From an uncultured bacterium (GTDB lineage: Bacteria > Bacteroidota > Bacteroidia > Bacteroidales > Marinifilaceae): a stretch of DNA of 64,000 nt. This document shows positions 10,395-63,864 of the stretch, piece after piece (position 1 is the stretch's first letter; each line of letters opens with the position of its first letter). The position numbers and the translations under genes were made by a program. The notes under the pieces were generated by a model that saw only the letters and a program-made list of their open reading frames with translations, had not been told where the DNA came from and searched no databases. The DNA lies in the NCBI GenBank assembly GCA_905216195.1, contig CAJMSX010000012.1, positions 1,706 through 65,705 of the forward strand. Reading direction: 5' to 3'.

Positions 10395-11909
<1,515 letters not shown>

Positions 11910-11927
11910 CACAAAGGACGCAAGTAT

Positions 11928-12161
11928 ATGATAGTAAGGGTTATATCGACTGAAAAAGTGCTTTTTGACGGTTCTGCGGAGCGGGTGACCTTGCCGGGAG
12001 CCTGCGGTCCCTTTACCGTATTGAACGGTCATGCGCCTTTGATATCCACCCTGGTTCCCGGAGAGATTGTGTATACGGTCGCAGGGAAGGAAAGTCGCCT
12101 TCAGGTAAAGGGAGGGATCGTAGAAGTCAGGGATAACCGGGTGACGGTATGTATCGGCTGA
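11928..12161 (+). CDS. atpC: F1 ATP synthase subunit epsilon (short form, beta-sandwich domain only)
   Basis: 77-aa ORF immediately after atpD. VISTEKVLFDG...LPGACGPFTVLNGHAPLIS is typical of the epsilon N-terminal domain. Confidence 0.85.
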   Translation: MIVRVISTEKVLFDGSAERVTLPGACGPFTVLNGHAPLISTLVPGEIVYTVAGKESRLQVKGGIVEVRDNRVTVCIG

Positions 12162-12237
12162 AAAGCCATCGGCAGGCGGATCGTAATTCCGCCCGGGAAC
12201 AAGGTATTTTAATTCTTTAAGGGTAAAAGAACGGTAT

Positions 12238-13311
12238 ATGAAGATGAAAGAAGGATGGATTTCCATCGCAATCGTACTCTTGCTGAGTTTGTTTTCTGTT
12301 GCGGTACTCCGGGCAGAAGAGAAAAAGGAGGGTACGGCTGTTTTTGACCCGGAGCAGGTCATTTTCGAGCATTTGGGAGATGAATACGGTTGGAGCATCG
12401 AGTTGCCGCACGGCAGAAGAGTGAGTATTCCTTTGCCGGTTATCGTACGGAGTCAGCAGGGGAAATGGTATCTATTCAGCTCTTCCCGTTTGGAAAACGG
12501 GAAGGTTTATAAAGGTTTTTACCTGGCTAAAGGAGGGGATTACGATGGAAAAGTAGTGCAAAAGGGGGAGGGCGGACAAGTGTATCGTCCCTGGGACCTG
12601 TCGGTTACAAAGAACGTATTGGCGCTTTTTATCACGGCTTTGCTGGTGGCTTGGGCGGTTTTTCCTATGGTACGCTGGTATAAGCGGAATCCGTTGAAAG
12701 CTCCCCGCCGAAGGTTAGGCCTCATGGAGATGCTCATCGATATGATGTATACGGAAGTTATCGTATCCGTATTGGGAAAAGAAGCGAGGCGATACGGGCC
12801 TTACCTGCTCACGCTGTTTTTCTTCATCCTGTTTTCCAATTTATTGGGACTGATGGTCGTATTTCCCGGGGGAGCCAATGTGATGGGGAATATTTCGATT
12901 ACGCTGGTTTTGGCGGTATGTACTTTTGTCGTCGTGAACGTTTCGGGGACCAAAGCATACTGGAAAGAAATGTTTTGGCCGGACGTGCCCCGCTGGCTGA
13001 AGTTTCCCTTGCCGATTATGCCATTGATTGAGATATTCGGTATGTTTACCAAGCCGGTGGCCTTAATGATCCGTTTGTTTGCCAATATGCTGGCGGGACA
13101 TCTGATTACTCTGGTCTTGATTTCCCTTATTTTTATTTTCGGGGCGATGGGGACGGCAGCTTTGGGGACTTCTACCGTTATTGCCGTATTGTTCGCCCTG
13201 TTTATGGGGCTGGTGGATTTCCTGATTTGTTTTATTCAGGCTTACGTATTTATGATATTATCCACTATTTTTATCAATCTGGCCCGGGTCGGAAAAGAAA
13301 ATGCAAATTAA
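12238..13311 (+). CDS. atpB: Fo ATP synthase subunit a (long N-terminal extension)
   Basis: 357 aa. The conserved arginine context LMIRLFANMLAGH, multiple TM helices, and its position in the atp operon. Confidence 0.9.
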   Translation: MKMKEGWISIAIVLLLSLFSVAVLRAEEKKEGTAVFDPEQVIFEHLGDEYGWSIELPHGRRVSIPLPVIVRSQQGKWYLFSSSRLENGKVYKGFYLAKGGDYDGKVVQKGEGGQVYRPWDLSVTKNVLALFITALLVAWAVFPMVRWYKRNPLKAPRRRLGLMEMLIDMMYTEVIVSVLGKEARRYGPYLLTLFFFILFSNLLGLMVVFPGGANVMGNISITLVLAVCTFVVVNVSGTKAYWKEMFWPDVPRWLKFPLPIMPLIEIFGMFTKPVALMIRLFANMLAGHLITLVLISLIFIFGAMGTAALGTSTVIAVLFALFMGLVDFLICFIQAYVFMILSTIFINLARVGKENAN

Positions 13312-13343
13312 AAATAAATAAAACTATATTTTATAACAACTAA

Positions 13344-13613
<270 letters not shown>

Positions 13614-47341: not shown

Positions 47342-47349
47342 TAAATTTG
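47342..47349 (+). promoter_or_regulatory. candidate Bacteroidota -7 promoter box (TAAATTTG) upstream of the RiPP precursor
   Basis: Exact match to TAnnTTTG, 88 nt upstream of the ATG at 47437. No well-spaced -33 TTTG is visible. Confidence 0.3.
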
Positions 47350-47436: not shown

Positions 47437-47622
47437 ATGGAAAAAAAACTTTCAGACCTGATGCCTCATGCAGCATTAGACATCAGTGAGCTCTCAAACA
47501 TTAAAGGTGGTATGGAGAATCCCACAGAAATCAAACGAGTTTGCGATACCGGAGCGTGTAGCTCTAATCTCGACACTCTTGTACAGTATTGTACCGAATC
47601 CATTTGCAGAACCGGTGCTTAA
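47437..47622 (+). CDS. RiPP precursor peptide with double-glycine leader (Bacteroidetes GG-type) and four-Cys core
   Basis: 61 aa. Leader MEKKLSDLMPHAALDISELSNIKGG. Core contains CDTGAC and CTESIC. Lies 60 nt upstream of a radical SAM/SPASM gene. Confidence 0.7.
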   Translation: MEKKLSDLMPHAALDISELSNIKGGMENPTEIKRVCDTGACSSNLDTLVQYCTESICRTGA

Positions 47623-47682
47623 CCTTAAAGGACGCTTGCCACAAGTTGGAAAGGTTTGTGGCAAGCGTAGAAAAAGATAATT

Positions 47683-49149
47683 ATGCAGATTTGCTTTAAT
47701 CCTAATTATTATCTAAAGCATGATGGAGAACGGACCATTCTTGCGACAAATCCTTATGCTCAAGATCCTGACGTTAAGAAAGGATGGTTATCTAAAATAC
47801 ATCCTCTCTACGCAATGATGTTTTCAATTTTGTCTCAACCGAGTGAATTAGAAATAGCTATTCGAAAAATTGCTGATTTTTTCTCGGTTTCGATAAATGA
47901 AGCAGAACGTTTGCTCACCCCTTTCCTTTATGAGGAAGGAATTTTAGAAGCAAAATACCAAGATACTATCAGTTATTTTCCTCCACACATTGTATTGAAG
48001 GATATAGGAATAACGCATGGAGGTCTAGATTATAATCCTGCCCACTTTATATTTTCCAAAGTTGATCTTACAAGCCAACGAATGAAATTGGCTCCTCAGG
48101 GGATTGTTCTAATTATCAATAATCGCTGTGTGACTGATTGTATTTATTGTTATGCAGATAAAAAACAGAAGTGTAAAACGTCTTTCAGTTTAGCGACAAT
48201 TGAATCCCTGTTGGAAAACGCAAAAAGACTTGGGATTCGAGAATTACAGGTTATAGGCGGAGAGTTTTTTCTTTACCCTGATTGGGAAAGATTATTGGAA
48301 CTACTCGAAAAATATGAATTTTACCAATCTTTAATTTCTACAAAAGTACCACTAAGCAAAGCGCAAATAAACTATTTTAACCGATTTAACATAAGTTTAC
48401 AAATATCATTTGATGGTTTTGATAGTAATTTGGTTCAAAAAACATTAGGCGTTTCAGATGTTTATTTTGAGCGCATGAAAAGAACTATAAAGAATATAGA
48501 TTGTGCTTCTGTAAACTTTCAAGTAGCTACAGTGCTCACGAATCTAACAGCTACTATTGATAATTTAAACAATCTTCATTGTTTTTTGAAGGAGTTAAAG
48601 AATTTAAAACGTTGGGAAATTCGATTTGCTTTTCGATCGCTATATTCCGTTTCTAATTTTGATGAAATAAAGGTTTCGCCGGATTTTACAGAAATGCTTT
48701 CTCATTGGTATGAAGAAATTAGAAAATCCTCATCCGTGAATATTCTTCTTTCTCCGGCTAATGATATAAAATATTATTCAGCCCAAAATGGTTCTATTAG
48801 TTTTGAAGGGCCTCGCTGTTCTGCGAATACCACTCATATGGTTATTTTGCCCGATGGAAAAGTGACAATTTGTGAGCAACTTTATTGGAATCCGAGATTT
48901 ATTATTGGAGACATCTATAAGAATACAATAGAGGAAATATGGACGGGAAGAAGGGCACTTGAATTGGCATCTTGGCAACAATCAAAAGTTCAAAAGAATA
49001 GTCCATGTTCTTCTTGTGAATTGTTTGAGACCTGTTTAAATTATCCCAATAAATGTTTTGCAAACACTATCAAAGCTTATGGTGACGCTAATTGGGATTA
49101 TCCTGATCCTCGTTGCTCAAGGGCTCTTCCGTTCATCCATTCACTTTGA
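47683..49149 (+). CDS. radical SAM/SPASM-domain peptide maturase with N-terminal PqqD/RRE-like domain
   Basis: 488 aa. CVTDCIYC (CX3CX2C, nt 48127-48150) and a C-terminal SPASM-like region GPRCSAN..DGKVTIC..CSSCELFETCLNYPNKC. The N-terminal ~95 aa resemble a leader-recognition element. Confidence 0.8.
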   Translation: MQICFNPNYYLKHDGERTILATNPYAQDPDVKKGWLSKIHPLYAMMFSILSQPSELEIAIRKIADFFSVSINEAERLLTPFLYEEGILEAKYQDTISYFPPHIVLKDIGITHGGLDYNPAHFIFSKVDLTSQRMKLAPQGIVLIINNRCVTDCIYCYADKKQKCKTSFSLATIESLLENAKRLGIRELQVIGGEFFLYPDWERLLELLEKYEFYQSLISTKVPLSKAQINYFNRFNISLQISFDGFDSNLVQKTLGVSDVYFERMKRTIKNIDCASVNFQVATVLTNLTATIDNLNNLHCFLKELKNLKRWEIRFAFRSLYSVSNFDEIKVSPDFTEMLSHWYEEIRKSSSVNILLSPANDIKYYSAQNGSISFEGPRCSANTTHMVILPDGKVTICEQLYWNPRFIIGDIYKNTIEEIWTGRRALELASWQQSKVQKNSPCSSCELFETCLNYPNKCFANTIKAYGDANWDYPDPRCSRALPFIHSL

Positions 49150-49154
49150 TCGTT

Positions 49155-51497
49155 ATGAAGAAGGTTTTTTTATTTTTTGGTACATTTCTGTTTGCTTATA
49201 CTTCCCTGTTTGCATTTTCCACCAAAAGACTAACAGGAGTTGTGTTGGATAGTCTGTCAAAATCTCCAATTGAATTTGCCAATGTTTTAATTTTTAGTCA
49301 AGACTCTCTCTATATCGATGGATGCACGACTACTAAGAGCGGTTCTTTCGTTTTTGAGGATATTCCGAGATCCGGCGGATACCTCAAAGTATCCTTTATT
49401 GGATATGTCGATGCCATATATAGTCTGGACAGTTTAAGTACGGAGAAAAACAATATTCTCTATCTTCGCCCTTCGGATATATTCCTGGAAGAAATTACGG
49501 TATCGGCGAATAGGAAACCATTCCAGATCGAAGATGAGCGAATACTATTCAACCCCTCTTTTGTCGCTTATGCCGTAAATGCAAGCGATTTAATCAGGCA
49601 AGCCCCCGGTGTGATGGATACCGGTACATCGCTTGTTATGCCAGGGAAAAATGCGATTAAAATTTATATAAACAACAAGGAACAGAAAGGTTCACTGGAA
49701 GACATTCTGCTTCTTCTTAAATCTTATCCTGCGTCAGAGGTGGAGTCTATTGAAGTGATGATTAATCCATCCACACGATACACTATGGGCCAAAATGTCG
49801 GTGTGATCCATGTTAAACTGAAGAAAAAGCCAACGGATTATTTAGGCGGTAACGCCTCTTATTCTTTACTTCAAAACACTCAGCCGAGTAATGAAGGATC
49901 CTTAGGACTTTTTTATCAGGGGAAACGTTTTTCAACATCTTTAAACACTGCCGGTAATCTGAAGAAGTACGATCTTGAGGAACACCAGAGAGTTGGTTTT
50001 ACAGATTATACCCGAAATGCACTCACAGATATGACCCGCCATGCGAAGGACTTGGTGCTTCGATGGAATGTGAGTTATCAATTCAACGAGAATTGGAATG
50101 CGGGTTTGTCAGCTTACTACGCAACGGGAAAAATGAAACAGCGAACGGATCAACACTATTGTTATTATTTCCCTTCAGCAACAGAAGAACGAGAGCTTAT
50201 TACAGGCAAACGAACAGACCAAGCAAATACTTCTTTCGCCTCTTTTGACTTGGAAGGCAAATTATCCAAGACTACAAACTTGACGATTAATGTTGATTAT
50301 TACCATAAACATTCTCCTACTGAACGTAGTCTTTACGCTGTCCCTCTTGAGGAGCGGTTGATTTATTCTTTAGATGATATTACAAGCGATAATGTGACGG
50401 CTAAAGTCAATCTAAATCTTGTCTCAACTTCTAAACTCACTCTGAATTTTGGTGTAGACGGTATTTTTACCAATACCAGGAATTCTGAAACAGGCGTTTA
50501 TAGTGACGGACTTAGTGGTGAGGACGATTTCGAGTATCAGGAGAATGAAATAAATATTTATGGCGAAGCTCGTTATAAATTCAATTCAAAATGGATGTTA
50601 AGAGGAAGTCTGCGTTATCAGTCCATATGGACTGAAGCAGAAAATAAACTTGCTTCTGAAAATACGGATCATCATTATCAGGTATTTTGTCCTGCGGCTT
50701 TTCTTTCCTATCTGTTGAAAGAAAATCAGTCTCTTCAACTTGGCTTTTATTACAATATCAATAAGCCAACCCTTACTGCTCTTAATCCATCGAGGTTGTA
50801 TATCGGCAACGATACTTACCGTGTAGGTAATCCTGAATTGGAACACTCTACCCATTACGTTGTCAGCCTTAGCTATTCCTTAGGAAGCCTGATGATACAA
50901 CCTTATATAGAGTGGCTTGACAACGGGATTACTGAAATCTCCAGGATTGAAGATAATAAATATCAAGTGATGACTTGGGAAAATGCTGTGGATCGTCGTA
51001 ATCTGGGATTAATGATTTTTTGGGCCTATTCCAAACCTAAATGGATGCGGGCTTCACTTACGGCATTCTTAACTAATCCTGTGACCACTTCAGATCATCC
51101 GCTTTTACATGCAAGAGTGAGTTCTTTTAAGTTCTCTCTAAGTCCGAATTTACAATTCTATTTGGAGAATGACCGTAAATGGATTCTCGCTGTGTATGGA
51201 AATTATACCAGTCGGGAACATACGGTTGATCTGAAACTGGAATCCATGTGGCGACTGAATGCCAGTTTAACATGGAAGGCAAGCAAACAATGGACCTTGT
51301 CTGCAAGCGGCTTGAATTTATTACGCTCTCATACTCGGGGAATTCAGTATATCGGAGAATCTACCATGAAATTTAATAATAAATATATGTATACCGGATT
51401 TCAATTCTCAGCCAGTTTCACCTGGGGTAAATCTATGCGGCAATCCCGAGACAGAGCCGTCCTTCGGAATATGAACATGCGTACCGAACTCGATTGA
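49155..51497 (+). CDS. outer-membrane beta-barrel protein (CarboxypepD_reg-like N-domain plus TonB-receptor-like/OMP_b-brl_3 barrel)
   Basis: About 780 aa from the ATG at 49155 (MKKVFLFFGTFLFAYTSLFA signal). The domain TGVVLDSLSKSPIEFANVLIF..GSFVFEDIP is followed by a long stretch of alternating beta-strand pattern. The start is 5 nt after the rSAM stop. Confidence 0.7.
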   Translation: MKKVFLFFGTFLFAYTSLFAFSTKRLTGVVLDSLSKSPIEFANVLIFSQDSLYIDGCTTTKSGSFVFEDIPRSGGYLKVSFIGYVDAIYSLDSLSTEKNNILYLRPSDIFLEEITVSANRKPFQIEDERILFNPSFVAYAVNASDLIRQAPGVMDTGTSLVMPGKNAIKIYINNKEQKGSLEDILLLLKSYPASEVESIEVMINPSTRYTMGQNVGVIHVKLKKKPTDYLGGNASYSLLQNTQPSNEGSLGLFYQGKRFSTSLNTAGNLKKYDLEEHQRVGFTDYTRNALTDMTRHAKDLVLRWNVSYQFNENWNAGLSAYYATGKMKQRTDQHYCYYFPSATEERELITGKRTDQANTSFASFDLEGKLSKTTNLTINVDYYHKHSPTERSLYAVPLEERLIYSLDDITSDNVTAKVNLNLVSTSKLTLNFGVDGIFTNTRNSETGVYSDGLSGEDDFEYQENEINIYGEARYKFNSKWMLRGSLRYQSIWTEAENKLASENTDHHYQVFCPAAFLSYLLKENQSLQLGFYYNINKPTLTALNPSRLYIGNDTYRVGNPELEHSTHYVVSLSYSLGSLMIQPYIEWLDNGITEISRIEDNKYQVMTWENAVDRRNLGLMIFWAYSKPKWMRASLTAFLTNPVTTSDHPLLHARVSSFKFSLSPNLQFYLENDRKWILAVYGNYTSREHTVDLKLESMWRLNASLTWKASKQWTLSASGLNLLRSHTRGIQYIGESTMKFNNKYMYTGFQFSASFTWGKSMRQSRDRAVLRNMNMRTELD

Positions 51498-51665
51498 TTT
51501 ACCTGAAAATGGAACGGATGGCTTTTAGTTGTTTGAACAACAAGCTATAGGTCTCAAAAAGACATATCTAAATGGCCCCTTTACCCCCTCTCTTGGCAGC
51601 TTAATTAATTTGCATAGGTGTATTAATTTTAAAGGTAAAAATAGCATATTTTTAGGGAGCCTTTG

Positions 51666-51673
51666 TATATTTG
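51666..51673 (+). promoter_or_regulatory. candidate -7 promoter box (TATATTTG)
   Basis: Exact TAnnTTTG match, 45 nt upstream of the lipoprotein ATG at 51718. Confidence 0.3.
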
Positions 51674-51717
51674 TTTGCAGAAAACCGATTCACTATAGAA
51701 TCCTAAATCGAAGCTGT

Positions 51718-52449
51718 ATGCAAACAAAAAATTTATTCGGAATACTCCTGTTACTCCTTTGCTGTGTGGGTTTGATCAGCTGTGATAAGGAGCACGACGA
51801 CGGGTCGCGGGGATTTATGCAGGAAGCCACAATTATAGGTGATTCGATAAATGGTTACTATTGTTATTTAGACGGCGGCGGATTGGCTATTTCTCATGAC
51901 CCCTGGCTAGAGGGCATAGAAAGAGGATATTTCGCTTTCCATTATATGGAAGAAAATAAGGGCGTGAATGCTAATCAGGAATGGTATATTCAGCCTGCAC
52001 ACGTCTTGCCTTATTCCATATATCCGGTGGTTCACCCGATCAACATAGCAGAAGCAGAATCTAAACACCTTACGGACAAAGATAGTTGTCAAATCCCTTC
52101 ACTTTTTTCATTGGAATACGGCTACCGCGGTTATTTTGACTTCAATACAGGGTTATCCGTTACCAACTTAGCCCATGGAGAAAAAGTCCCTATCCAACTG
52201 AATATGGTATATGATGCGGAGAAACAGACTTCCGATACTTTGCTGTTGCAGCTTTGTTACCATGCGCACGTCCCGGAAACATGGACCCACCCGAGTGTTG
52301 ATTACGGCAGAGTGTCCTGCGATATTTCTTCCCTGGCTACCCTTCGGTCGTGGAGCGATTCGGTGACTATTGTGATAGAGACAGGGGACAAAATGAAACA
52401 TCTGACAAAAATCAGTAAAACGGATTTTTTTAAGCCTGTCAGAGAATAG
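51718..52449 (+). CDS. lipoprotein of unknown function (possibly NigD-like)
   Basis: 243 aa from the ATG at 51718. Lipobox LLCCVGLISC followed by DKEHDD. The segment EATIIGDSINGYYCYLDGGGLAISHD recalls NigD-like lipoproteins, but this family call is weak. Confidence 0.55.
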   Translation: MQTKNLFGILLLLLCCVGLISCDKEHDDGSRGFMQEATIIGDSINGYYCYLDGGGLAISHDPWLEGIERGYFAFHYMEENKGVNANQEWYIQPAHVLPYSIYPVVHPINIAEAESKHLTDKDSCQIPSLFSLEYGYRGYFDFNTGLSVTNLAHGEKVPIQLNMVYDAEKQTSDTLLLQLCYHAHVPETWTHPSVDYGRVSCDISSLATLRSWSDSVTIVIETGDKMKHLTKISKTDFFKPVRE

Positions 52450-53177: not shown

Positions 53178-54029
53178 ATGGAAGAAAAAGTTAACATATT
53201 GATATCCAATTTACAGCAACTGATTAAACAGTTGAATCAATTAGGACTAACTAAATTATCTGATTCTATTTCTCTCGCTTGTAATTGTCTCAAATCACAC
53301 GATTTAATCGGGTTAGATATCATATTAGTCTCTTTTAGTAATAGCAATATACAAAGAGAGATAAATAATTGCAAAATTTATAATATGGTAGTGCGTGCAA
53401 TAGAACTTACAAAAGACATCCAAGAAGATTTTAATAACGATATTACACCATTAACCAAAGCAGAGGAATTATTTCTTCATATTAGCTATAATAAGTTTTT
53501 TGATATTAGTGAAGAAATTTATTCACCAGAATTTTGGAGGCAATCTCCCCAATACAGATTTAGTAAAATCTCGCAAGCATTCAGTATTTATGGAGAGATT
53601 TTAACCTATGAACCGATTCAGGGTGTTCTAAATTGGATGTCTAAATATCGTCCTCCTATGGAATCTGAGATTTCAGGCCCGTTGTTTAAATTTATTCGTA
53701 ATATACTTGCTCACTTTCCATTTTATGATTCGTGGGATGATATATGGATAAGTAGAGATTTAGTTAATTGGAGGACTCAGGGGCAAAGCATAGATAAGTT
53801 TCTAAAAAAATACTCTGGATTACCTGCGATAAAATATCGTTTCAAAGAAAATACAAAGCCAAGTTTCACTTTTATAACAATATCTTTCCCTGAAAAATAT
53901 GATTCAGAAAAAATATACTTGAAAGACATAATAAAGGAAGAAGAAGGTGTGAAATTTGCACTTGTTATGATGCGTAAAGTCCTTAATACACAAATAGAAT
54001 CTATGACAGAAACAACAACGACACATTAG
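53178..54029 (+). CDS. hypothetical protein with R-x4-H (HEPN-like) motif
   Basis: 283 aa from the ATG at 53178 (299 aa from the GTG at 53130). Predicted mostly helical. Contains FKFIRNILAHFPF, i.e. R-N-x-x-A-H (codons 53697-53714). Very AT-rich. Confidence 0.5.
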   Translation: MEEKVNILISNLQQLIKQLNQLGLTKLSDSISLACNCLKSHDLIGLDIILVSFSNSNIQREINNCKIYNMVVRAIELTKDIQEDFNNDITPLTKAEELFLHISYNKFFDISEEIYSPEFWRQSPQYRFSKISQAFSIYGEILTYEPIQGVLNWMSKYRPPMESEISGPLFKFIRNILAHFPFYDSWDDIWISRDLVNWRTQGQSIDKFLKKYSGLPAIKYRFKENTKPSFTFITISFPEKYDSEKIYLKDIIKEEEGVKFALVMMRKVLNTQIESMTETTTTH

Positions 54030-54824: not shown

Positions 54825-55958
54825 TCACTCGAAGACCTTGAGCAACGCCCGTTTGTCCTCCTCCTTTTTGACACGCAGGTAGTTGCGGTAGTTTCCGAAT
54901 CCGGCCATCAACACCAGCTCCATGTTGCTTTTGTCGCTGTACCGGGGCGCAAGACGCAGACGGTCGAGTTCCTGCAAGCGGCAGCGGTTTATCAGGCGGC
55001 TGAAATTCATGCTGTATTCGCGGTTGATAAAGGCCGAGAGGTAATTGCGGTTGGTGTTCAGCCCGGCGGCGAGGTCGGTGATGCGGAGTCGGGGATTGAT
55101 ATAGGGCTTCTTCTCGCACAGGTAACGCTCGAACTGCTTGCGGTCGAGGGCGGAGTCCTTCTGCGTCGTATCTTCCTCTTTCCCGTCGGCGGGTTCGGGC
55201 TGGATGATCAGGTAATTGCCGTCGAGCATGTTGTAGCATAAAATAATGTATAAGACGGAATAGGGCAAAGCCCCCAACCAGACGAACCACAAGGAGGAGA
55301 AGGTGTCGATGCCCAGCAAGATGCCGGCAAGGGGGACGGGGATGCAGACAAAGATCAAAAGCTGGATGCCGAAAAGCCAGTCGAGCGAAGTGCGCTGAGC
55401 CTCGGAAGAGTAATCTACGACGAAACGCCTGTATCGACGGATGTTGCGCAGGCTGAGCAGCGGATAAAGCGTATTGTAGACGATGAAGATGATACTCGTG
55501 AGTATATAGACAATGCCGAACCACGCATCGGAGGTAAGGCTGGCGCTCTCGTAAACCACGGCCATCTGTTTCTCAGCGGGAACAAAGAGGTCGCATCCGG
55601 CTGAAAATGCTGTGATAGCTAACGGGATAGCAACATGCAGGCGGTTGAGCCTGCGTGACCCGCTGGTGTCCGTCAGCAGGGCTACAAAGTGATAGAACAT
55701 CACCTGGTCGAGCATCAGGGCCAGCAGAAAGACCGTGTGGTAATGGACAAATCCATCGGGGCTTACCGCATAGAGTACCATCCCGAACCACCCCAGCGCG
55801 GTAACCAGATAGATGACGGCCAGATACAACCTGAGCCGCCTCTCCTGCACATTCCGTTGGCAGGTGCGGGCGTCCATGAGCATCATAAGCATACAGCCTA
55901 CGGCGCATACGACGGGTGTGGAGAACGCGAACGCTTCCACTTGTTCATGCGCGATCAT
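54825..55958 (-). CDS. membrane-anchored AraC-type HTH transcriptional regulator
   Basis: 377 aa. An N-terminal multi-TM domain of about 240 aa and a C-terminal HTH region ITDLAAGLNTNRNYLSAFINREYSMNFSRLINRCRLQEL...MAGFGNYRNY. Confidence 0.7.
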   Translation of the reverse strand: MIAHEQVEAFAFSTPVVCAVGCMLMMLMDARTCQRNVQERRLRLYLAVIYLVTALGWFGMVLYAVSPDGFVHYHTVFLLALMLDQVMFYHFVALLTDTSGSRRLNRLHVAIPLAITAFSAGCDLFVPAEKQMAVVYESASLTSDAWFGIVYILTSIIFIVYNTLYPLLSLRNIRRYRRFVVDYSSEAQRTSLDWLFGIQLLIFVCIPVPLAGILLGIDTFSSLWFVWLGALPYSVLYIILCYNMLDGNYLIIQPEPADGKEEDTTQKDSALDRKQFERYLCEKKPYINPRLRITDLAAGLNTNRNYLSAFINREYSMNFSRLINRCRLQELDRLRLAPRYSDKSNMELVLMAGFGNYRNYLRVKKEEDKRALLKVFE

Positions 55959-57190
55959 GGTGTACCTCCTTTCTTCCTGCCGGATTCTTTTTCCTCCGCC
56001 TCTGCTGCCGCTTCCCGTTCGGCGGCGATAGCCCTCAAATAGGTGCGGTAATTGTCGAATCCCGCCTTTTCGACCAGCGAACGCATGCTTTTACCGCGAT
56101 TGGAGGGCAGCGCACGCAGGCGGTCGAGTTCGCGGAGCCGCCAGCGGTTCAGATAGCGGTTGAAATTCATGCCGTAGGTGCGGTTGATAAAACTCGACAG
56201 CGCGGTGCGGTTCACATCGAACACCTCGACCAGATCGGCGATTTTGCACGCCGGATCGAGCCACGGCTTTTCATGGCGGAAATAAGCCTCCAAACGAACG
56301 CGGCTCAATTTGCCGCTGTGATGCCTGCGCAGGGGTTTGGATTCCGGGCTATCGGTGGCTTCCGGTTGCATTTGCGGTGCAGCCGCTATTATTGGAACCG
56401 CACCTTGCCGGGCGTCGTTGTCGGGCAAGACATACAGCCGATACTTGCGGCGGATGATGTGGTACGAGAGCAAGACGTGCTGAAAGGCCATCGCCCCGGC
56501 AGCGAGGATCGTCCAAAACGAATGCAGGATCGTTGCGCGGGGCATAAACGTAGGCAACAGCGACGAGAGCAGCGAGGCGATGGAGATACCCACCAGAAAC
56601 ACCACCCACCGGGCGGTTTGCCGTCCGGGGGCTTGTTTCCCGTTTGTGCGGTGATAGTAACGTACCAGCAAGGCAATCGTCAGTATATAATAGGCCATTC
56701 CGAAAATCATGCGCAAAAGAGGCTTGAGGGTAAAGAAACGCGCGAACGCTTCGTACCCTGCGGGAAAGACCTGCGCCTTGCCCTCGACGATCCCGATCTG
56801 CACATCCATCGGCACGAACAGCGACCAGACGAACAGCACCCCCGCAAGCAGTCCCGGCAATAGGTAGTGCTGCGGCGAAAACCGTTCCGCCTCTCCCAGA
56901 CGGGTAAGGTAGCGGACGATGCGGTAGAAAAAGATCGAGGGCAGCACGTAAGAGAGCAGGCACAGCACGTTGAGCCATGTAAAGAGCACCGGATGAAATT
57001 CGTAGCAGAATGTCATATACCAGCCCAAAGCGGAGAGCGCAAGATAGACCAGCATGATCTTTTTCAGGCGGCGTTCCTCCTGCGAGAGGCAGTCGCGCAG
57101 GGAGAGGGCCACCAACGCCGAGCAGGTGATGGCCGAAAAAACAGGGATAAGAACTGTAATACCGACTTTATAGGCTGCTAAAATATCCAT
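55955..57190 (-). CDS. membrane-anchored AraC-type HTH transcriptional regulator, paralog
   Basis: 411 aa with the same architecture (IADLVEVFDVNRTALSSFINRTYGMNFNRYLNRWRLREL...KAGFDNYRTY). Its stop overlaps the downstream start as ATGA (55955-55958). Confidence 0.7.
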   Translation of the reverse strand: MDILAAYKVGITVLIPVFSAITCSALVALSLRDCLSQEERRLKKIMLVYLALSALGWYMTFCYEFHPVLFTWLNVLCLLSYVLPSIFFYRIVRYLTRLGEAERFSPQHYLLPGLLAGVLFVWSLFVPMDVQIGIVEGKAQVFPAGYEAFARFFTLKPLLRMIFGMAYYILTIALLVRYYHRTNGKQAPGRQTARWVVFLVGISIASLLSSLLPTFMPRATILHSFWTILAAGAMAFQHVLLSYHIIRRKYRLYVLPDNDARQGAVPIIAAAPQMQPEATDSPESKPLRRHHSGKLSRVRLEAYFRHEKPWLDPACKIADLVEVFDVNRTALSSFINRTYGMNFNRYLNRWRLRELDRLRALPSNRGKSMRSLVEKAGFDNYRTYLRAIAAEREAAAEAEEKESGRKKGGTP

Positions 57191-57609: not shown

Positions 57610-57654
57610 CAATCAGTCCGCAAAGAGCTATAACTCCTTTTTGCGGACTGATTG
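57610..57654 (+). terminator. 15-bp perfect hairpin (attenuator/terminator-like) in the pilus operon leader
   Basis: caatcagtccgcaaa-15 nt loop-tttgcggactgattg followed by tttgtt. Lies 41 nt after the AC repeat and 108 nt before the ATG. Confidence 0.5.
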
Positions 57655-57762
57655 TTTGTTATCCCTGCCCCAAACCGGAGAGGGATGCGGCCACGAACAT
57701 ACCGCGTCGAATACAATCCCAATCATAGAATCAATAATTATATATCACTTAATAACCCGATT

Positions 57763-58845
57763 ATGAGCAAAATGATCAAAACACTACTTACCCTTGTGCT
57801 GGCGGTATCTGTTTGTGCAGCGTCCTACGGGCAGGCCGCCCGCCCTGCAGCAGAGGAAAAAACAGCGACTTTCGTATTCCTTCCGGGAAATGACATGTTT
57901 CTGCTGAAAGGCAATGAAACGGAGCTGGAGCGGCTCTACGCTTTGGTGGAGGAATACCGCACGGAGATCGCCGCAGGCGCAATGCCTGTGTATGTGGACG
58001 GCTATTGCGCCTCGCTGCCGACCTCGAAAGAGAACCTGACGACGGCTTTCGTACGCGCCAACCGCGTCAAGTCGGAGTTGATCCTCTCGAAAGGGCTGAC
58101 GGAGGCGGATTTCATTACGAATAACTACGCACACGCGTACCTTAATAATAAGGACATGGTGGTGGTTACGCTCCGCATTCCGGCAAAGGAGGAGCCGCGC
58201 CAACCGGAACCAGTGCGGGAGGAACCCCGACCGCAGGAGCCGCAGGTAAAGGCGCAGCCCGAACCCGAACCGCAACCTGCGCAGGAGCCGGTTGCAGAGG
58301 TCGCGCCCGAACCTGCCGTGCCCGCCAAGCCCTATTGCTTTGCAGTGCGGACGAATGTGCTTTACGATGCGCTGCTGCTGCCCACGCTCGGCGTGGAGTG
58401 GCGCATAAACCGCGATCTGGGCATCAAGCTCGACGGCAGCCTCTCGTGGTGGGGCAATGAAAAAGAGAAGGTGCAAAAGATGTGGGTGCTTAACCCGGAG
58501 GTGCGGTGGTATCTGCTCCGTGACAAACGGTTCTACGTCGGGGCTGCGGGTAGTTATGGACAGTACAATATATATAAGTACCCAATCGGCAGTATCGTAT
58601 CGAAAGACACGGGCTATCAGGGCTCGATGTGGAACGCAGGCGTGACGGTCGGTTACCAGCTCTACCCCTCGCGCTGCTTCTCGGTCGATTTCAACCTCGG
58701 TCTGGGCTACACGCGCTTCGATTACGACACGTTCGGCATCACCGACGGCGTGCGGGTGTACAAGGAGCGCGACCGAACGAAGAACTTCTGGGGGCCGACG
58801 CAGGCGGGAATATCGCTTGTCTGGACTATCGGAGGTAACAAGTAG
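57763..58845 (+). CDS. DUF3868-like / Pro-rich linker / DUF3575 outer-membrane protein (first gene of type V pilus loci)
   Basis: About 360 aa from the ATG at 57763. Signal MSKMIKTLLTLVLAVSVCAASYGQ, the linker EEPRQPEPVREEPRPQEPQVKAQPEPEPQPAQEP, and a C-terminal VRTNVLYDALLLPTLGVEWRI...NPEVRWYL beta-barrel pattern typical of DUF3575. Confidence 0.65.
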   Translation: MSKMIKTLLTLVLAVSVCAASYGQAARPAAEEKTATFVFLPGNDMFLLKGNETELERLYALVEEYRTEIAAGAMPVYVDGYCASLPTSKENLTTAFVRANRVKSELILSKGLTEADFITNNYAHAYLNNKDMVVVTLRIPAKEEPRQPEPVREEPRPQEPQVKAQPEPEPQPAQEPVAEVAPEPAVPAKPYCFAVRTNVLYDALLLPTLGVEWRINRDLGIKLDGSLSWWGNEKEKVQKMWVLNPEVRWYLLRDKRFYVGAAGSYGQYNIYKYPIGSIVSKDTGYQGSMWNAGVTVGYQLYPSRCFSVDFNLGLGYTRFDYDTFGITDGVRVYKERDRTKNFWGPTQAGISLVWTIGGNK

Positions 58846-58866
58846 AACAAATATAAAAACAGGAAT

Positions 58867-59736
58867 ATGAAAAGAGTTATAAAACTACAACTTGTCGGGG
58901 CAGTGGCGATAGCTACGCTTCTTGCTGCCTGCGACGTGAAAGACCCCATTTACAACACTCCGCACCCGGAGCACGGTAAAATCACGCTGACTACCGAGTG
59001 GGACGGAATCGGTGAGGGACTGCAAGCCCCCGACAGCTATACGGTCTGCATCGGCGACTATACGACCAACGTGAGCGGCTCGACCAACACGCTCGACCAC
59101 CTTTTCGCGCCGGGAACCTACCGCATGCTCATTTACAACACGCCCGAAAATATCAGCTTCGACGGGACGGTGGCGGATGCGATGAACGGTGACACGCATG
59201 ATCCCGGCTGGCTCTTCTCCTACTCCGCAGAGGTGACGATTTCAAAAGATACCGATCACGCCTTTACGGCTGTGATGAAGCAACAGTTGCGGGAATTGAC
59301 GCTGGTGATCGAACCCACGGGCGACGCCGCCGACCGGATAGAAAGCATCAAGGGCTATTTGAATGCGATAGCCGGTAAGTTCGACATGGAAAACGAGACT
59401 TACTTATTTCCAATAATGTTAATGTTTGATTTCTCGAAGATTGCCGACGGGCCCGATGCCGGGAAATGGAGTTCCACCATACGGACGTTAGGCTTCATGC
59501 CGGAAGAATCTAAAGGGCTGAGTCTCAAAATCCACTACAAAGACGGCAATCCCGAAATGCAAATCGTAACAAGCGATCTTACGGAGGCTTTGGCGGGATT
59601 CAACGACGACAAGCGCACGCCCCTGACGCTGGGCGGATCGGTGGTGGATACGCCTACCGGAGCCGGGTTCGGAGCAATCATTGACGACTGGACGGCAGGC
59701 AACGGCGACGGCGAAGATATAGACGCGAATATGTAA
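58867..59736 (+). CDS. FimB/Mfa2-like fimbrial anchor lipoprotein
   Basis: 289 aa. Lipobox ATLLAAC. Size, position and the IESIKGYLNAIAGKFDMEN segment resemble Mfa2-family anchors. Confidence 0.5.
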   Translation: MKRVIKLQLVGAVAIATLLAACDVKDPIYNTPHPEHGKITLTTEWDGIGEGLQAPDSYTVCIGDYTTNVSGSTNTLDHLFAPGTYRMLIYNTPENISFDGTVADAMNGDTHDPGWLFSYSAEVTISKDTDHAFTAVMKQQLRELTLVIEPTGDAADRIESIKGYLNAIAGKFDMENETYLFPIMLMFDFSKIADGPDAGKWSSTIRTLGFMPEESKGLSLKIHYKDGNPEMQIVTSDLTEALAGFNDDKRTPLTLGGSVVDTPTGAGFGAIIDDWTAGNGDGEDIDANM

Positions 59737-59769
59737 CAATCGATCATATAATAATTAAATACAAGCAAA

Positions 59770-60705
59770 ATGATGAAATCAGTAACTCCAATCCGCCTGT
59801 CCGCCATCCTGATGGCGACGGCTTTCCTCTTTGCAGGATGTGAAAAAGAGAACGAAAACACAGTAGATAACCAGCCCGTAAAGGCGCGTATCACCTCCGT
59901 CATCGACGGCATGGCCACACGCGCCTCGGGCACGGCATGGGCGCCGGGCGACCGCATCGGCATCACCGCAAAGAAAGCGGACGGCACAGTGCTCTTCACC
60001 AACATGCCCTACGTCACCACAGAGGGCGACGGTGTGTTCACCCCCGAAGGCGAAGCCTTCTATTTTCAGGATAAAGACGAAGTGACTTTTACCGCCTATT
60101 ATCCTTTCACCGAAAGCAGCTACATGGCAGACGACCGCTGGATAATGTTTCTAACAGGCGGATTGGAAAGCCAGAAGCCCGAAAACCAACCGAAGTATGA
60201 CGTCCTGTTTGCCACCACCACGGGCAGCTCCTCCAGCCCCGACCTGCAACTGCGCTTCTGCCATTGCATGAGCCGCTTCGTGCTCCGCTTCCTGCCGGGC
60301 ACCGGTGTCGCTTCGCTCGACGACATCACCTACGAGCTTAGTGGGATAATAACGGGCGGCATATTCAACACCCTGACCGGAGAAACCATCGTCAATGAAA
60401 CCTCAGTAAGCGTGGGCCTCACCGTCCCCGGCAGCAACGCCTCCGAACTGACCTCCCCGCTCATCCTCTTCCCCCAACAGAGCGAGGACGATAAAACGCT
60501 CACGCTCACTATGCGGGGCAAGACCTACACCGCTACGTTCAAGTTTAAGGAAAACCCGAACAACGGGAACGTGCGCGAACTGGCGGCAGGGCACACCTAT
60601 ACCTATAATGTAAAGATAAACAATACGTCGATGACCATCACTCCCGCCACCATCTCTAATTGGGAAGAGGGTGGCAGCGAGAATATCGACAGTACCAACA
60701 ATTAA
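59770..60705 (+). CDS. fimbrillin-family (Mfa-like) pilin lipoprotein
   Basis: 311 aa. Lipobox FLFAGC, then ...GMATRASGTAWAPGDRIGI, which is the Arg processing-site context and GD.IG block typical of Bacteroidales fimbrillin-like proteins. Confidence 0.6.
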   Translation: MMKSVTPIRLSAILMATAFLFAGCEKENENTVDNQPVKARITSVIDGMATRASGTAWAPGDRIGITAKKADGTVLFTNMPYVTTEGDGVFTPEGEAFYFQDKDEVTFTAYYPFTESSYMADDRWIMFLTGGLESQKPENQPKYDVLFATTTGSSSSPDLQLRFCHCMSRFVLRFLPGTGVASLDDITYELSGIITGGIFNTLTGETIVNETSVSVGLTVPGSNASELTSPLILFPQQSEDDKTLTLTMRGKTYTATFKFKENPNNGNVRELAAGHTYTYNVKINNTSMTITPATISNWEEGGSENIDSTNN

Positions 60706-60717
60706 ACACGATCCGTT

Positions 60718-62340
60718 ATGAAACTGAATAATCACCCATTTCGCACTGCTGCGCTGCTGCTGCTCGTAATGCTGGCGGCAGCCTGCACGAAGGAAGACGA
60801 CTTTACCGCGTCCCCCGACGAGGGTACGGCAAACGCCGCGCCCCTCCTCACCATCACCGTGACGGACGGCGCATACGCCTCGGCGGAAACGCCGGACAAC
60901 GATAACATCCCCGGCACCCGCGCCGTGGAGCGTGGCTACGGCACGGAGTTCACCAAAGGCGACTGCATAGGGCTGTATGTGGTGGAGATGAAGAATGCCT
61001 CTGGAAGCAGAGTATTCCTCCACGAAAACCTCTGCCTCACCCACGACGGCACGGGCTGGACGCTGCCCGCCGGCACGGAACTGACGTACCAACCGCCCAC
61101 CGGCGGAGAAATAATCTACCTTGCCTATTATCCTTATCAGAACGATATGGCGGGTAAAGTCAATATTGACGCCTTGAACCCAAATGGACAGGGTGCCGAA
61201 GCCCGGTGGTTTTTCTCCCGCCTAATCGAGAGGTGGCAGCCCGCCACCGACCAAAGCACTTACGAAGCCTACACCGCCAGCGACCTGATGGTGGCACGCG
61301 GAGAGGTGGCGAAGCGCACCGACGGCACGGACGGTTCCGTGCTCAACTTCACGATGGAGCATCAGATGCCGCTGGCAATTATCCGCCTGCCGACGACAAA
61401 ATATACCTACTCCGAAACCATCGACGGCACGGAGACGAAGAAAAGCTACCGCCTTTATTCCGGACTGGATGCCAAAGCATGGCTTGCCGACGACAATACA
61501 TACCGTCGTATTATGAAATGGTATCCTACGACCAACATAGGAATCGAAGCTTCCTATTACAATTCCTCACTCGAAAGGCGTATTTTTAGAGGAACTATCA
61601 AGGCCGATAGTCCCGGCAAATATTTCTTATTCACCGTCGACGGCGGCGAGGAAACCGAGACCGAACGAGTTCTCCAAGTGGGAGATTTCTACATGAGCGA
61701 CGGTACAATCATTCCGAACGAACATGTTACGTCTACGATGCCTGCTGCCATACAGAAAGAGTGTGTAGGCGTGGTGTACGCCGTGGGCGAAGAGAAAGTC
61801 GGCGGCTACAAACGGAACGACCACCTGCTGAAGCGCGACTATCCTAACTGCACGCACGGATTGGTGCTGGCTCTGCAAAATGCATCAGACAACTGCGCGT
61901 GGAGCAATACGAATGAGTTAGTAAATGATTGGACAAACGCGCCCGAAAGAGGAGAGGAACAGGTAGATATATCGGAATCGAATAGTTTCAAAGGGTACTC
62001 TTCAACAAAAGCAATATTGGCTTATAATGCTGCCTATCCCGATAAGGCGGTATTGGCCGCAGAGACTGCCAGACAATATAAAGTTGCAAGTCCCGAAGGG
62101 AGCAGCGGATGGTTTATGATGGATATGAATGATGCTGCAGTAATAAAATTGAAGGCTCTTAATTCGATTCAGAATGCTCTCGAAAAAGCAGGAGGCGTAA
62201 AAGTTGAAGGCTCCTATTGGACGAGTTTTGAATATGGTCAGAATAAGGCATTCTGTCTCGATATGCCTACTCAGGAGCAACTTGGTCTATGGTGCTCTAA
62301 GAGTGACCAGCGTCCTGTCCGTCCCGTGCTCGCCTTTTAG
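60718..62340 (+). CDS. fimbrillin-family protein with C-terminal DUF1566 (Lcl-like) domain, candidate tip adhesin
   Basis: 540 aa. Lipobox MLAAAC, then IPGTRAVERGYGTEFTKGDCIGLYV. The C-terminal GWFMMDMNDAAV...YWTSFEY...RPVRPVLAF resembles DUF1566. Confidence 0.55.
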   Translation: MKLNNHPFRTAALLLLVMLAAACTKEDDFTASPDEGTANAAPLLTITVTDGAYASAETPDNDNIPGTRAVERGYGTEFTKGDCIGLYVVEMKNASGSRVFLHENLCLTHDGTGWTLPAGTELTYQPPTGGEIIYLAYYPYQNDMAGKVNIDALNPNGQGAEARWFFSRLIERWQPATDQSTYEAYTASDLMVARGEVAKRTDGTDGSVLNFTMEHQMPLAIIRLPTTKYTYSETIDGTETKKSYRLYSGLDAKAWLADDNTYRRIMKWYPTTNIGIEASYYNSSLERRIFRGTIKADSPGKYFLFTVDGGEETETERVLQVGDFYMSDGTIIPNEHVTSTMPAAIQKECVGVVYAVGEEKVGGYKRNDHLLKRDYPNCTHGLVLALQNASDNCAWSNTNELVNDWTNAPERGEEQVDISESNSFKGYSSTKAILAYNAAYPDKAVLAAETARQYKVASPEGSSGWFMMDMNDAAVIKLKALNSIQNALEKAGGVKVEGSYWTSFEYGQNKAFCLDMPTQEQLGLWCSKSDQRPVRPVLAF

Positions 62341-62389
62341 CGGGCTGTGGACGGAAACTGCGGTATAAAACGATTAAAAAAAGAAAGAT

Positions 62390-62617
62390 ATGAGCAATTA
62401 TATACTCCTTATCGCTTGGTCAATCGCCGTTTGTTCGCTGGCGGGGGTGCTCCTTATGTATTGGCGTTACCGCCGTATGGTGCGGTATTATAACAACTAT
62501 ATAATGAAGTACATCCGCGAGCATGACCTATTGACGAAAGAACTGGAACATGCACGTATTGAAAAAAAATACGAGGAGAAGTTGTTCGAAACTTATTTTT
62601 CGGAAGCTACGGAATGA
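62390..62617 (+). CDS. small single-pass membrane protein with charged coiled-coil tail
   Basis: 75 aa. TM segment ILLIAWSIAVCSLAGVLLMYW, then a basic and acidic helical tail. Confidence 0.4.
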   Translation: MSNYILLIAWSIAVCSLAGVLLMYWRYRRMVRYYNNYIMKYIREHDLLTKELEHARIEKKYEEKLFETYFSEATE

Positions 62618-62712
62618 AACGATACTTACCCCCCCGTCCCGCCAAAGAAAGGAGGACAACGCAGAGGGACGGGATTAATGAACCTGATTATAAACTTTAA
62701 ATAAAGAGAATC

Positions 62713-63864
62713 ATGGAAAATAGTAGAATTAAAGAAGCAACGTTGGCTATCAGCCAATCGTTGGGAATTGATCTTGATGTTATCATCAGTGATATTCAGT
62801 TGGAACCACAGCAGAAATTCCGCCTTATCTATGAAAAAGTGCTGACAGCATCGCTTACTCGATGGATACGGAATGATGATAAAGGAGAACTACGATTACC
62901 ACCTGACTTTAACATCGAAGAATTTGTAACCGGAAAGATGGCAACCTTGCCCGTAGTCGGTTCACCAGAGGCAACCGACGGGCAGTTGCAATACATTCCC
63001 AATATTTTACTGACACCCAAACGTGCAGAACGTGTAAAAAATGCAAAGGAAAGCCAAGTAACAGACGAAGTTAACAGTTTATTCGAGATGACGATCGCTA
63101 TTCTGCAAAACGAACGCTTTGATTGGAAAGATGTGACAAGAATCTTTATTGAGGCAGGAGTAGCTGCACTTACAATTGCAGCAGGTATGGTTGTCGTGGA
63201 AGCCGCTGCTATTGCTGCTGTGATAAATCCTTCTTTTGCAGCAGGTTTTGCGGTAGCCGCCGGCTTATTTTCTTTAGGGGTTACAGAGCTTATTACCATC
63301 CTGTCTCAATTGTATGCTTTCTTTACCTCGGGTATACTTTTCAACCGCAGCTTTTTGGGAGTAGTGATTAACGATACAGATAAGGATTTGTTAATCCCCA
63401 ATTGGAAAGATAAGAGCAATGCCAAATCCCGCAATAGCGGCATCTACTGCCGTCATGGCTGGTTGTCAGGGCTAATGGTGGATGATTACAATGGTGGTCA
63501 AGGGGCGATTGTCGGCAAAAGAACAGCTGTCAATAAGGATATTTGCTGCTATTGCGGATTATATCTACTGGAGAAAAATACGGGAGCCACCGGTTCCGAA
63601 GGTTTCTTCCGCTTCAAGATAGGCAAGGTGGAGTTCGACTTGAACGCCACATGCCCCATGTCGTCTCACAACCGGGTATACACCTCGTTCAACTATACCG
63701 ACGAGAACTTGTACAAAGCCAATTCCGATGTAGCCAATGAGTGGAAGAAGAAGAGCAAAGAGGAATTGTTGTATGGAAAAGCCACGAAGGATTGCGTTAG
63801 TGTGACTTATTCATTGAATGATTTGACCGGTTCACCAGCTTACGGAATCGTTACTGTTGAATAG
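62713..63864 (+). CDS. hypothetical protein with central Ala/Gly-rich hydrophobic helical hairpin and Cys-containing beta-rich C-terminal domain
   Basis: 383 aa with no signal peptide. Residues ~146-205 (AGVAALTIAAGMVVVEAAAIAAVINPSFAAGFAVAAGLFSLGVTELITILSQLYAFF) form a ~60-aa hydrophobic block flanked by soluble regions. Confidence 0.5.
   Translation: MENSRIKEATLAISQSLGIDLDVIISDIQLEPQQKFRLIYEKVLTASLTRWIRNDDKGELRLPPDFNIEEFVTGKMATLPVVGSPEATDGQLQYIPNILLTPKRAERVKNAKESQVTDEVNSLFEMTIAILQNERFDWKDVTRIFIEAGVAALTIAAGMVVVEAAAIAAVINPSFAAGFAVAAGLFSLGVTELITILSQLYAFFTSGILFNRSFLGVVINDTDKDLLIPNWKDKSNAKSRNSGIYCRHGWLSGLMVDDYNGGQGAIVGKRTAVNKDICCYCGLYLLEKNTGATGSEGFFRFKIGKVEFDLNATCPMSSHNRVYTSFNYTDENLYKANSDVANEWKKKSKEELLYGKATKDCVSVTYSLNDLTGSPAYGIVTVE

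Follow-up and report, generated by a model that had tools for sequence, protein, structure and literature searches.

A radical SAM peptide gene cluster without its exporter gene in a Culturomica-like bacterium: a probable truncated copy of a Bacteroidota operon with a TonB-dependent-transporter-like partner

The DNA considered in this study is a stretch of 64,000 nucleotides from an uncultured bacterium of the Marinifilaceae (Bacteroidota; NCBI GenBank assembly GCA_905216195.1, contig CAJMSX010000012.1, positions 1,706 to 65,705 of the forward strand), and the whole of this stretch is called the window. It carries a putative gene cluster for a ribosomally synthesised and post-translationally modified peptide (RiPP), in which a precursor peptide with a double-glycine (GG) leader, a radical S-adenosylmethionine (rSAM)/SPASM maturase, and an outer-membrane protein (OMP) resembling TonB-dependent transporters (TBDTs) are encoded one after the other on the same strand, with a lipoprotein gene further downstream (Table 1). 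An earlier reading of the sequence, here the original prediction, had described the rSAM gene, a 5-nt gap, a ~780-aa OMP of CarboxypepD_reg/TonB-receptor type, and a 243-aa lipoprotein with its own TATATTTG box, and the open reading frames (ORFs) and Pfam matches agree with this layout. It had also noticed that no C39 peptidase-containing ATP-binding cassette (ABC) transporter (PCAT) is encoded nearby, and had proposed that the OMP and the lipoprotein could form an outer-membrane module dedicated to the peptide. The missing PCAT, the OMP, and the lipoprotein are therefore the subjects of this study.

Table 1. Features of the window discussed in the text (positions are those of the window).
Feature	Position	Strand	Remarks
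ABC ATPase	1149-1847		generic ABC ATPase domain at 1152-1817
C69 peptidase	4533-6173	-	
M24 peptidase	6186-7565	-	
MacB/FtsX permease, first of tandem pair	17769-20126		~790 aa
MacB/FtsX permease, second of tandem pair	20158-22533		~790 aa
TAAATTTG box, Bacteroidetes-type -7 promoter-like	47342-47349	+	pattern match; ~88 nt ahead of the precursor start codon
Precursor peptide	47437-47622	+	61 aa; GG leader and four-Cys core
Perfect inverted repeat (hairpin)	47632-47668	+	13-bp arms, 100% complementary; between precursor stop and rSAM start
Radical SAM/SPASM peptide maturase	47683-49149	+	488 aa; N-terminal extension of ~135 aa
TonB-dependent-transporter-like OMP	49155-51497	+	780 aa; ATG at 49155, 5 nt after the rSAM stop
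Break point	51498-51717		blastn homology to L085 ends; relatives carry the PCAT gene there
TATATTTG box of the lipoprotein	51666-51673	+	45 nt before the ATG, in the 220-nt spacer
NigD-like-fold lipoprotein	51718-52449	+	243 aa; lipobox LISC; 220 nt after the OMP
Orphan ORF	53178-54029	+	283 aa; 30.6% GC
Two tandem membrane proteins	54825-57190 and 57652-63864, shared with the next row	-	C-terminal AraC-type helix-turn-helix regions
DUF3575/Mfa-like fimbrial gene set	shared with the row above		follows the tandem membrane proteins

By ORF translation, the precursor is composed of a leader, MEKKLSDLMPHAALDISELSNIKGG, which ends in ELSNIKGG, and a core, MENPTEIKRVCDTGACSSNLDTLVQYCTESICRTGA, with four cysteines. 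The leader and a core of the form CxxGAC...CxxxxCx[TS]GA are kept in the precursors of the nearest relatives (66% identity to the window precursor in L089 and 40% in L091), and dozens of loci with homologues of the rSAM have GG-leader, Cys-rich precursors upstream of the maturase, as in the window, where such a short precursor lies directly 5' of it. None of the NCBIfam models matched the precursor. Judging from its position, the TAAATTTG box is likely the promoter of the operon; the TAnnTTTG motif is not enriched over the window (48 found, 47.8 expected), and such boxes are meaningful solely by their position upstream of genes. A scan of 46.8-54.9 kb for sigma-70 promoters and terminators gave nothing above shuffled expectation. 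The hairpin behind the precursor gene has a free energy of -24.7 kcal/mol (z = -4.4) and resembles the attenuator or stabiliser hairpins that follow precursor genes in other RiPP operons; it probably acts as one or the other and sets the ratio of precursor to enzyme.

The maturase matches the Pfam families Radical_SAM (2.4e-13) and SPASM (8.7e-12) and has 907 homologues, nearly all from Bacteroidia. The CxxxCxxC motif and the SPASM cysteines are invariant in an alignment of 31 rSAM sequences, which places it in a family of ~490-aa enzymes; PqqE and SkfB are among its distant matches. No NCBIfam equivalog attains its cut-off for this protein, and with the models of PapB, SkfB, and CteB type the scores are far below theirs. 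TIGR04150, which we take to be the pseudo-rSAM of the GG-Bacteroidales rSAM system, reaches 33.5 bits at the locus against a cut-off of 250, and the cluster does not belong to that system by this measure. The four-Cys core together with the SPASM enzyme suggests that the rSAM may form Cys thioether cross-links of the sactipeptide or ranthipeptide type. No characterised member of this rSAM family was found in the literature.

The OMP has a signal peptide, a CarbopepD_reg_2 domain (residues 26-116), and matches to TonB_dep_Rec_b-barrel (9e-19) and to PF14905, OMP_b-brl_3 (4.9e-45), to which family it clearly belongs with 154.7 bits over a gathering cut-off of 27. Its AlphaFold2 model (mean predicted local distance difference test, pLDDT, of 83) consists of the CarboxypepD_reg domain (26-106), a linker, a plug (~123-228, ~105 residues), and a barrel of ~22 strands. 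The modelled N-terminal plug inside a 22-strand barrel is the arrangement of TBDTs, and the top 50 Foldseek matches in the PDB are all TBDTs (best E ~1e-20), including Cir (bound to microcin V), PhuR, FepA/PfeA, OprC, BtuB, and BtuB-BtuG (PDB code: 8bmx). A TonB-box-like sequence, LEEITVSA, lies in the low-confidence linker before the plug, and an L-x-E-[VI]-x-V motif is conserved at this place in the 46 cluster-linked OMPs. The Pfam Plug model (PF07715) did not match the window OMP and matched 5 of the 23 listed homologues. In the literature, the accession PF14905 was found in a single incidental mention only.

To place the OMP in its genomic context, the neighbourhoods of the rSAM family were compared: 80 genome loci (L005-L084), with rSAM relatives of 31-49% identity, and metagenome contigs with relatives of 52-73%. 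Clustering of neighbouring ORFs took in 78 loci, and calls based on hidden Markov models (HMMs) count 83 family-rSAM loci. Among the 78 clustered loci, the C39 plus ABC exporter (PCAT) is encoded in 52, a PF14905 OMP in 46, a tetratricopeptide repeat (TPR) protein in 27, an HlyD-like protein in 22, and a DUF3244 protein in 14; the HlyD-like gene comes after the PCAT gene in many of them. The HMM calls give a PCAT in 51 and a PF14905 OMP in 43 of the 83 loci. The OMP gene stands directly after an rSAM gene in 19 loci and directly before one in 11 (30 adjacent pairs on the same strand), and the window, with its OMP gene adjoining the rSAM gene on the same strand, has the same arrangement. When at least 6 kb was available on both sides (n = 40), 35 loci had the PCAT, 28 the OMP, and 25 both; three had the OMP only (two of these with PCAT fragments) and two had neither, which leaves five without an intact PCAT.

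The control set comprised 50 loci (448 kb in all) around homologues of the downstream lipoprotein, and PF14905 OMPs are absent from every one of them; the p value is 5e-12 when counted by locus and 4e-4 when counted by distinct context (Fisher's exact test). Because the OMP is found next to the rSAMs of the family and not in these control loci, it is linked to the peptide system, and on this synteny it can be regarded as a genuine conserved partner of the maturase family and a regular member of the operon. The pairing is spread over Muribaculaceae, Prevotellaceae, Bacteroidaceae, Tannerellaceae, Dysgonomonadaceae, Ancylomarina, Anditalea, and Flavobacteriaceae. Among cultured species, Segatella copri (L021) has an intact rSAM-OMP-PCAT operon, and in Phocaeicola sartorii (L059) the OMP and the PCAT are both encoded, in a different order; for Parabacteroides distasonis (L025) and Bacteroides cellulosilyticus (L064), the fetched flanks contain a PCAT and no OMP. 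Other genes recur in the related clusters as well, such as those for DUF6734 and DUF3244 proteins and glycosyltransferases. A homologue of the S46 dipeptidyl-peptidase Dpp7 (~650 aa) adjoins the rSAM or the OMP in seven of them (L032, L033, L038, L040, L043, L049, for example at 11490-13454, and L054) and may trim the peptide after cleavage behind the GG motif.

The absence of a C39 domain or PCAT from the window, as originally predicted, was confirmed with Pfam and by tblastn, in which three PCATs of related clusters served as queries and found just the generic ABC ATPase domain near the start of the window. A PCAT was likewise absent from the Pfam annotation of the flanks. No remnants of a PCAT were detected at 51.5-54.4 kb by tblastn with the same three PCATs or by blastn against related operons. 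For the TPR and HlyD-like accessory genes, which are frequent and not universal in the family, tblastn with TPR and c4_380 representatives gave chance matches only in the window. The further statement that the 64 kb hold no protease or ABC gene at all needs correction, since an ABC ATPase, two tandem MacB/FtsX permeases, and C69 and M24 peptidases are encoded there (Table 1). The ATPase lies ~16 kb from the permease pair, and these ABC genes are 25-46 kb from the cluster. The ABC and peptidase genes are far from the cluster, are without a C39 domain, and look like housekeeping genes.

In the four nearest relatives, precursor, rSAM, OMP, and PCAT genes follow each other compactly on the same strand, with gaps of 4-62 nt between rSAM and OMP and between OMP and PCAT. 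The identities to the window are 73% for the rSAM and 65% for the OMP in L085-088, 65% and 56% in L089, 52% and 42% in L091, and 49% and 36% in L005. The two values drop in step, and therefore the genes appear to have been inherited as a unit. Nucleotide homology to L085 spans the rSAM and OMP genes and ends at 51498, immediately behind the stop codon of the OMP gene (blastn), at the place where the relatives have the PCAT gene. Since all nearest relatives carry the PCAT directly after the OMP and the homology to L085 stops at the OMP stop codon, the absence of the PCAT is best taken as a secondary loss and not as the alternative architecture that had been supposed.

The base composition also sets the cluster apart. 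It lies in an AT-rich block at ~47.2-54.4 kb, in which each kb has 31-42% GC, compared with 45-58% in the surroundings, and the GC content of the cluster itself is 38%, against 48-52% in its flanks. A similar difference is seen in L091 (43% against 48-55%), and the AT-richness relative to the flanks in both places would fit a mobile cassette. Upstream of the block, the genes for HydG and a DUF2776 protein have normal GC, and the HydG clusters at an identity of at least 90% with that of Culturomica massiliensis, which makes the host a Culturomica-like member of the Bacteroidales. No tRNA integration site was found in the window.

Sister strains of the same species provide a view of the more recent history of the locus. 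One sister contig, L102, is 98% identical to the window in its DNA and has the locus at the same Transglut-HydG-DUF2776 site. In L102, a deletion of ~1.4 kb takes nearly all of the rSAM gene and leaves the OMP and lipoprotein genes in place; it begins just 3' of the hairpin. The precursor gene of the window has a run of eight adenines (A8, 47441-47448) in codons 2-4, and in L102 a change from A8 to A7 shifts its frame. In another assembly of the same species (a 64,398-bp Logan contig, recognised through protein clusters at 90% identity), the OMP is called as fragments of 575 aa and 175 aa (P0231 and P0229) with divergent sequence at the break, the precursor is called at 53 aa, and the lipoprotein is intact. 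Such a split would come from a pseudogene allele or else from an error of assembly. Precursors were called at 53 aa on three separate assemblies and at 61 aa on five, and the A8/A7 difference could be decay, slipped-strand switching, or an assembly error. Between the window and L102, the ratio of nonsynonymous to synonymous substitution rates (dN/dS) is 0.18 for the OMP (43 differences), 0.50 for the lipoprotein, and 0.06-0.13 for housekeeping neighbours, and the amino-acid identity is 97.8% for the OMP and 91% for the lipoprotein. It looks as if the OMP is constrained, with a divergence too small to tell whether the constraint outlasted the deletion; the faster divergence of the lipoprotein would be in keeping with a protein that is exposed at the surface and whose selection is diversifying or relaxed.

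Overall, the region at 47.3-51.5 kb is best explained as a truncated, horizontally acquired, and apparently decaying copy of an operon type widespread among Bacteroidota, which has lost its PCAT gene and is followed by an unrelated lipoprotein gene (probability of roughly 0.65). The locus is read as decaying because rSAM, precursor, and OMP alleles are broken in sister strains. The full operon type would be composed of an optional TPR gene, one or more GG-leader, Cys-rich precursors, the rSAM/SPASM maturase, the PF14905 OMP, the PCAT, and an optional HlyD-like adaptor. In the Culturomica-like lineage, the precursor, rSAM, and OMP genes would have been retained, and the PCAT, TPR, and HlyD genes either lost or never transferred. 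The intact system may be described as follows. The rSAM would cross-link the Cys-rich core, presumably by thioether-type bonds. The PCAT would then cut after the GG motif and export the peptide over the inner membrane, aided by the HlyD-like adaptor where one is present, and the co-transcribed OMP would handle the passage of the peptide over the outer membrane. For this last step, outward passage in two steps with the assistance of TonB, by analogy with Oar and PopC, is rated only slightly higher than re-import. In the absence of the PCAT gene, a mature extracellular peptide would here require a PCAT encoded elsewhere.

Several points weigh against this reading. All structurally characterised relatives of the OMP fold are importers, which argues against an export step, and no experiment on any member of the operon family was found in the literature. 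The precursor, rSAM, and OMP of the window are all intact ORFs, the OMP has the low dN/dS given above, and the locus may work with a PCAT encoded elsewhere. Moreover, metagenome assemblies are the source of the broken alleles, and a frameshift by one base in a homopolymer could have arisen during assembly; for the 1.4-kb deletion of L102 such an origin is unlikely.

It is necessary to weigh the explanation that the cluster is fully functional and that its PCAT and adaptor are merely located elsewhere in the genome, so that gene location and not decay accounts for what is missing. The intact genes of the window, with copies of 99% identity, and the constraint on the OMP would fit it; related loci often have more than one PCAT, which makes sharing in trans plausible; and GG-leader clusters without a PCAT, BGC3 and BGC5, have been described (PMC10352776), as have C39 peptidases outside the RiPP locus, which are frequent (PMC8939145). 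This explanation is nevertheless considered unlikely, since the PCAT is encoded in cis in 35 of the 40 well-covered loci and in all four nearest relatives, and since the loss of the rSAM, the frameshift in the precursor, and the split OMP in sister strains would be unexpected if the genes were under selection as a unit.

A further explanation concerns the OMP. If it were a TonB-dependent importer or receptor of the mature peptide (which might act as a signal, bind metal, or be a shared good), the lineage could have kept the receiver and lost production, similar to siderophore cheaters. The predicted fold is that of TonB-dependent importers, among them Cir with microcin V and OprC, the plug and TonB-box-like motif are conserved, and in L102 the OMP is intact and constrained despite the deletion of the rSAM gene; a precedent exists in MbnT of the methanobactin operon, which re-imports the product (PMC9601215, PMC3621798). 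Yet the OMP itself is split in one assembly, its low dN/dS over 43 differences may pre-date a recent deletion, the tight coupling of OMP and PCAT (and HlyD) in relatives fits an export set at least equally, and the clusters have no recurrent gene for a sensor or an inner-membrane importer. This reading, of a receiver kept after the loss of production, is regarded as rather unlikely, though re-import as such fits the fold as well as export does. A more speculative proposal, to which still less weight is given, is that the PF14905 OMP serves as a dedicated, TonB-energised gate for the peptide, either for export in place of TolC or as a re-uptake receptor, and that the Culturomica lineage is a 'receiver-only' or intermediate stage, in which the gate stayed under purifying selection after loss of the exporter and, in some strains, of the maturase.

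Under the preferred reading of a truncated copy, the downstream lipoprotein has no part in the peptide system. Its family (~243 aa) has 65 detected homologues, whose neighbours are mostly housekeeping genes (SPOR/DUF6016, BipA/lyase, DUF2202/ThiE, SDR/PBP/Fmt). The lipoprotein-family HMM has no match in foreign rSAM-family loci, and among the 50 homologue-centred loci, which represent ~12 distinct contexts, no pairing of the lipoprotein with a PF14905 OMP or a family rSAM occurs outside this species. The lipoprotein gene has a GC content of 43.9%, against 38% for the cluster, and this difference, together with its own promoter-like box and the 220-nt gap, fits a separate gene. On these grounds, the lipoprotein is judged to be an unrelated neighbour in a transcription unit of its own. 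A single locus, L097 (4868-7762, LT799418.1), has a TIGR04133 rSAM/SPASM gene followed directly by a homologue of the lipoprotein (50% identity). This link was rejected as a coincidence, being the sole such pairing among the ~12 contexts; the recognised lipoprotein partners of that rSAM (TIGR04134) are the two genes upstream of it.

The resemblance to NigD-like lipoproteins that the original prediction had described as faint is weak by sequence and clear at the level of the fold. With NF051862 of NCBIfam, whose cut-off is 60 bits, the lipoprotein reaches 19 and its homologues 20-23, no Pfam family matches it at E <= 0.1, and a PDB sequence search gave nothing useful; by sequence it is not a member of the family. 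Its model (mean pLDDT 91) predicts the two-domain beta fold of NigD-like proteins, in addition to the lipobox and a length close to that of the NigD-like lipoproteins of Bacteroides, and Foldseek retrieves the NigD-like PDB entries 4j8q, 4pqx, and 3qwn and the related entries 3k6o and 3nqi (E 8e-9 to 4e-4, TM-score 0.45-0.63).

The proposal that the OMP and this lipoprotein form one dedicated outer-membrane module for export, immunity, or uptake, which replaces the PCAT, thus stands in one half only: the OMP is linked to the rSAM (43 of 83 loci, against 0 of 50 control loci), and the lipoprotein is not. TBDTs of Bacteroidota often have a surface lipoprotein as their partner, with its gene downstream; BtuB-BtuG is among the fold matches of the OMP, NigD takes its name from a bacteriocin locus, the title of one PDB entry reads 'NigD-like immunity protein', and both genes are retained in L102. 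The adjacency across genomes that marks such pairs (SusC/SusD, BtuB/BtuG) was not found here, however; neither the lipoprotein family in foreign rSAM loci nor PF14905 OMPs in lipoprotein-centred loci were encountered, and the spacer, promoter box, and GC content separate the two genes. In addition, outer-membrane parts cannot replace leader cleavage in the cytoplasm or export over the inner membrane. By synteny, the proposal is largely refuted and appears very improbable.

Beyond the lipoprotein, the AT-rich block contains the orphan ORF, for which searches of Pfam, NCBIfam, and PADLOC and BLAST against L005-L084 gave no match. A metagenome-assembled genome of Alistipes sp. (MBS6459758.1) and more than 50 contigs encode proteins that share at least 90% identity with it, and it is probably a horizontally spreading gene outside the peptide system, in a separate transcription unit. 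The two tandem membrane proteins that follow (weak HTH_18 matches) have a GC content of 55-58% and precede the fimbrial gene set, and a phage-type integrase is encoded ~1.4 kb past the window end (L093 14695-15927). The stretch of 47-66 kb may be a composite island.

For the window, the value of these results is mainly corrective: the lack of an exporter would come from gene loss rather than from a novel logic of export, and an annotation of the lipoprotein as a component of a bacteriocin module would be unwarranted. In a wider sense, it appears that an OMP with the TBDT fold is a regular, co-inherited part of rSAM peptide operons across Bacteroidota and, according to the literature, of graspetide operons as well. 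Knowing which way this OMP transports its cargo would make clear how modified peptides cross the outer membrane in Bacteroidota. Questions of the chemistry and of the OMP's role belong to the whole rSAM family and not to this locus. What the window adds is a truncated, probably decaying copy in a Culturomica-like genome; the architecture itself is already known in Bacteroidota. The description of the locus as unusual for a RiPP system is accordingly not upheld.

Among known systems, the rSAM clusters BGC1-BGC8 of Bacteroidales, which include PCAT, membrane fusion protein (MFP), OMP, and TPR genes, were read as export systems on bioinformatic grounds (PMC10352776, Front Microbiol 2023); the same paper describes OMP genes as well as clusters that have a GG leader and lack a PCAT. 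These clusters share the GG-leader precursor, the rSAM/SPASM enzyme, the OMP gene, and the Bacteroidales host with the window, whereas the window copy is without PCAT, MFP, and TPR genes, and its rSAM family was not mapped to any of the numbered BGCs. In the accessible part of that paper, the Pfam family or fold of the OMP is not stated. In Bacteroidetes, pfam14905 or TonB-linked OMPs are present at ATP-grasp (graspetide) loci and were predicted to act in export (PMC8939145, Biol Direct 2022). The graspetide loci have the same OMP family, along with C39-ABC, HlyD, TPR, and SPASM maturase genes; the modification is made by an ATP-grasp ligase there and by an rSAM/SPASM enzyme in the window, and both systems are known bioinformatically.

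Colicin V and the class II microcins (exported by the PCAT CvaB, the MFP CvaA, and TolC) have a GG leader cut by the C39 domain of an ABC exporter and depend on an OMP for reaching the medium of a Gram-negative cell, similar to the PCAT, HlyD-like, and OMP genes of the relatives; unlike these, the window OMP has the predicted fold of a plugged TBDT and not of the TolC channel-tunnel, and the window has no PCAT or MFP. Oar, which has an N-terminal CarboxypepD_reg-like domain, is a plugged TBDT-type OMP that works outward, as proposed for the window OMP, a likeness drawn from its description; its cargo is a protease, whereas that of the window OMP would be a small modified peptide. In Myxococcus xanthus, this TonB-dependent transporter is needed for the secretion of PopC (PMC6434023). 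MbnT is a product-specific TonB-dependent transporter inside the methanobactin RiPP operon (PMC9601215, PMC3621798). It resembles the window OMP, a predicted TBDT, in being encoded within a RiPP operon, and differs from the outward role proposed here in that it imports the copper-loaded peptide.

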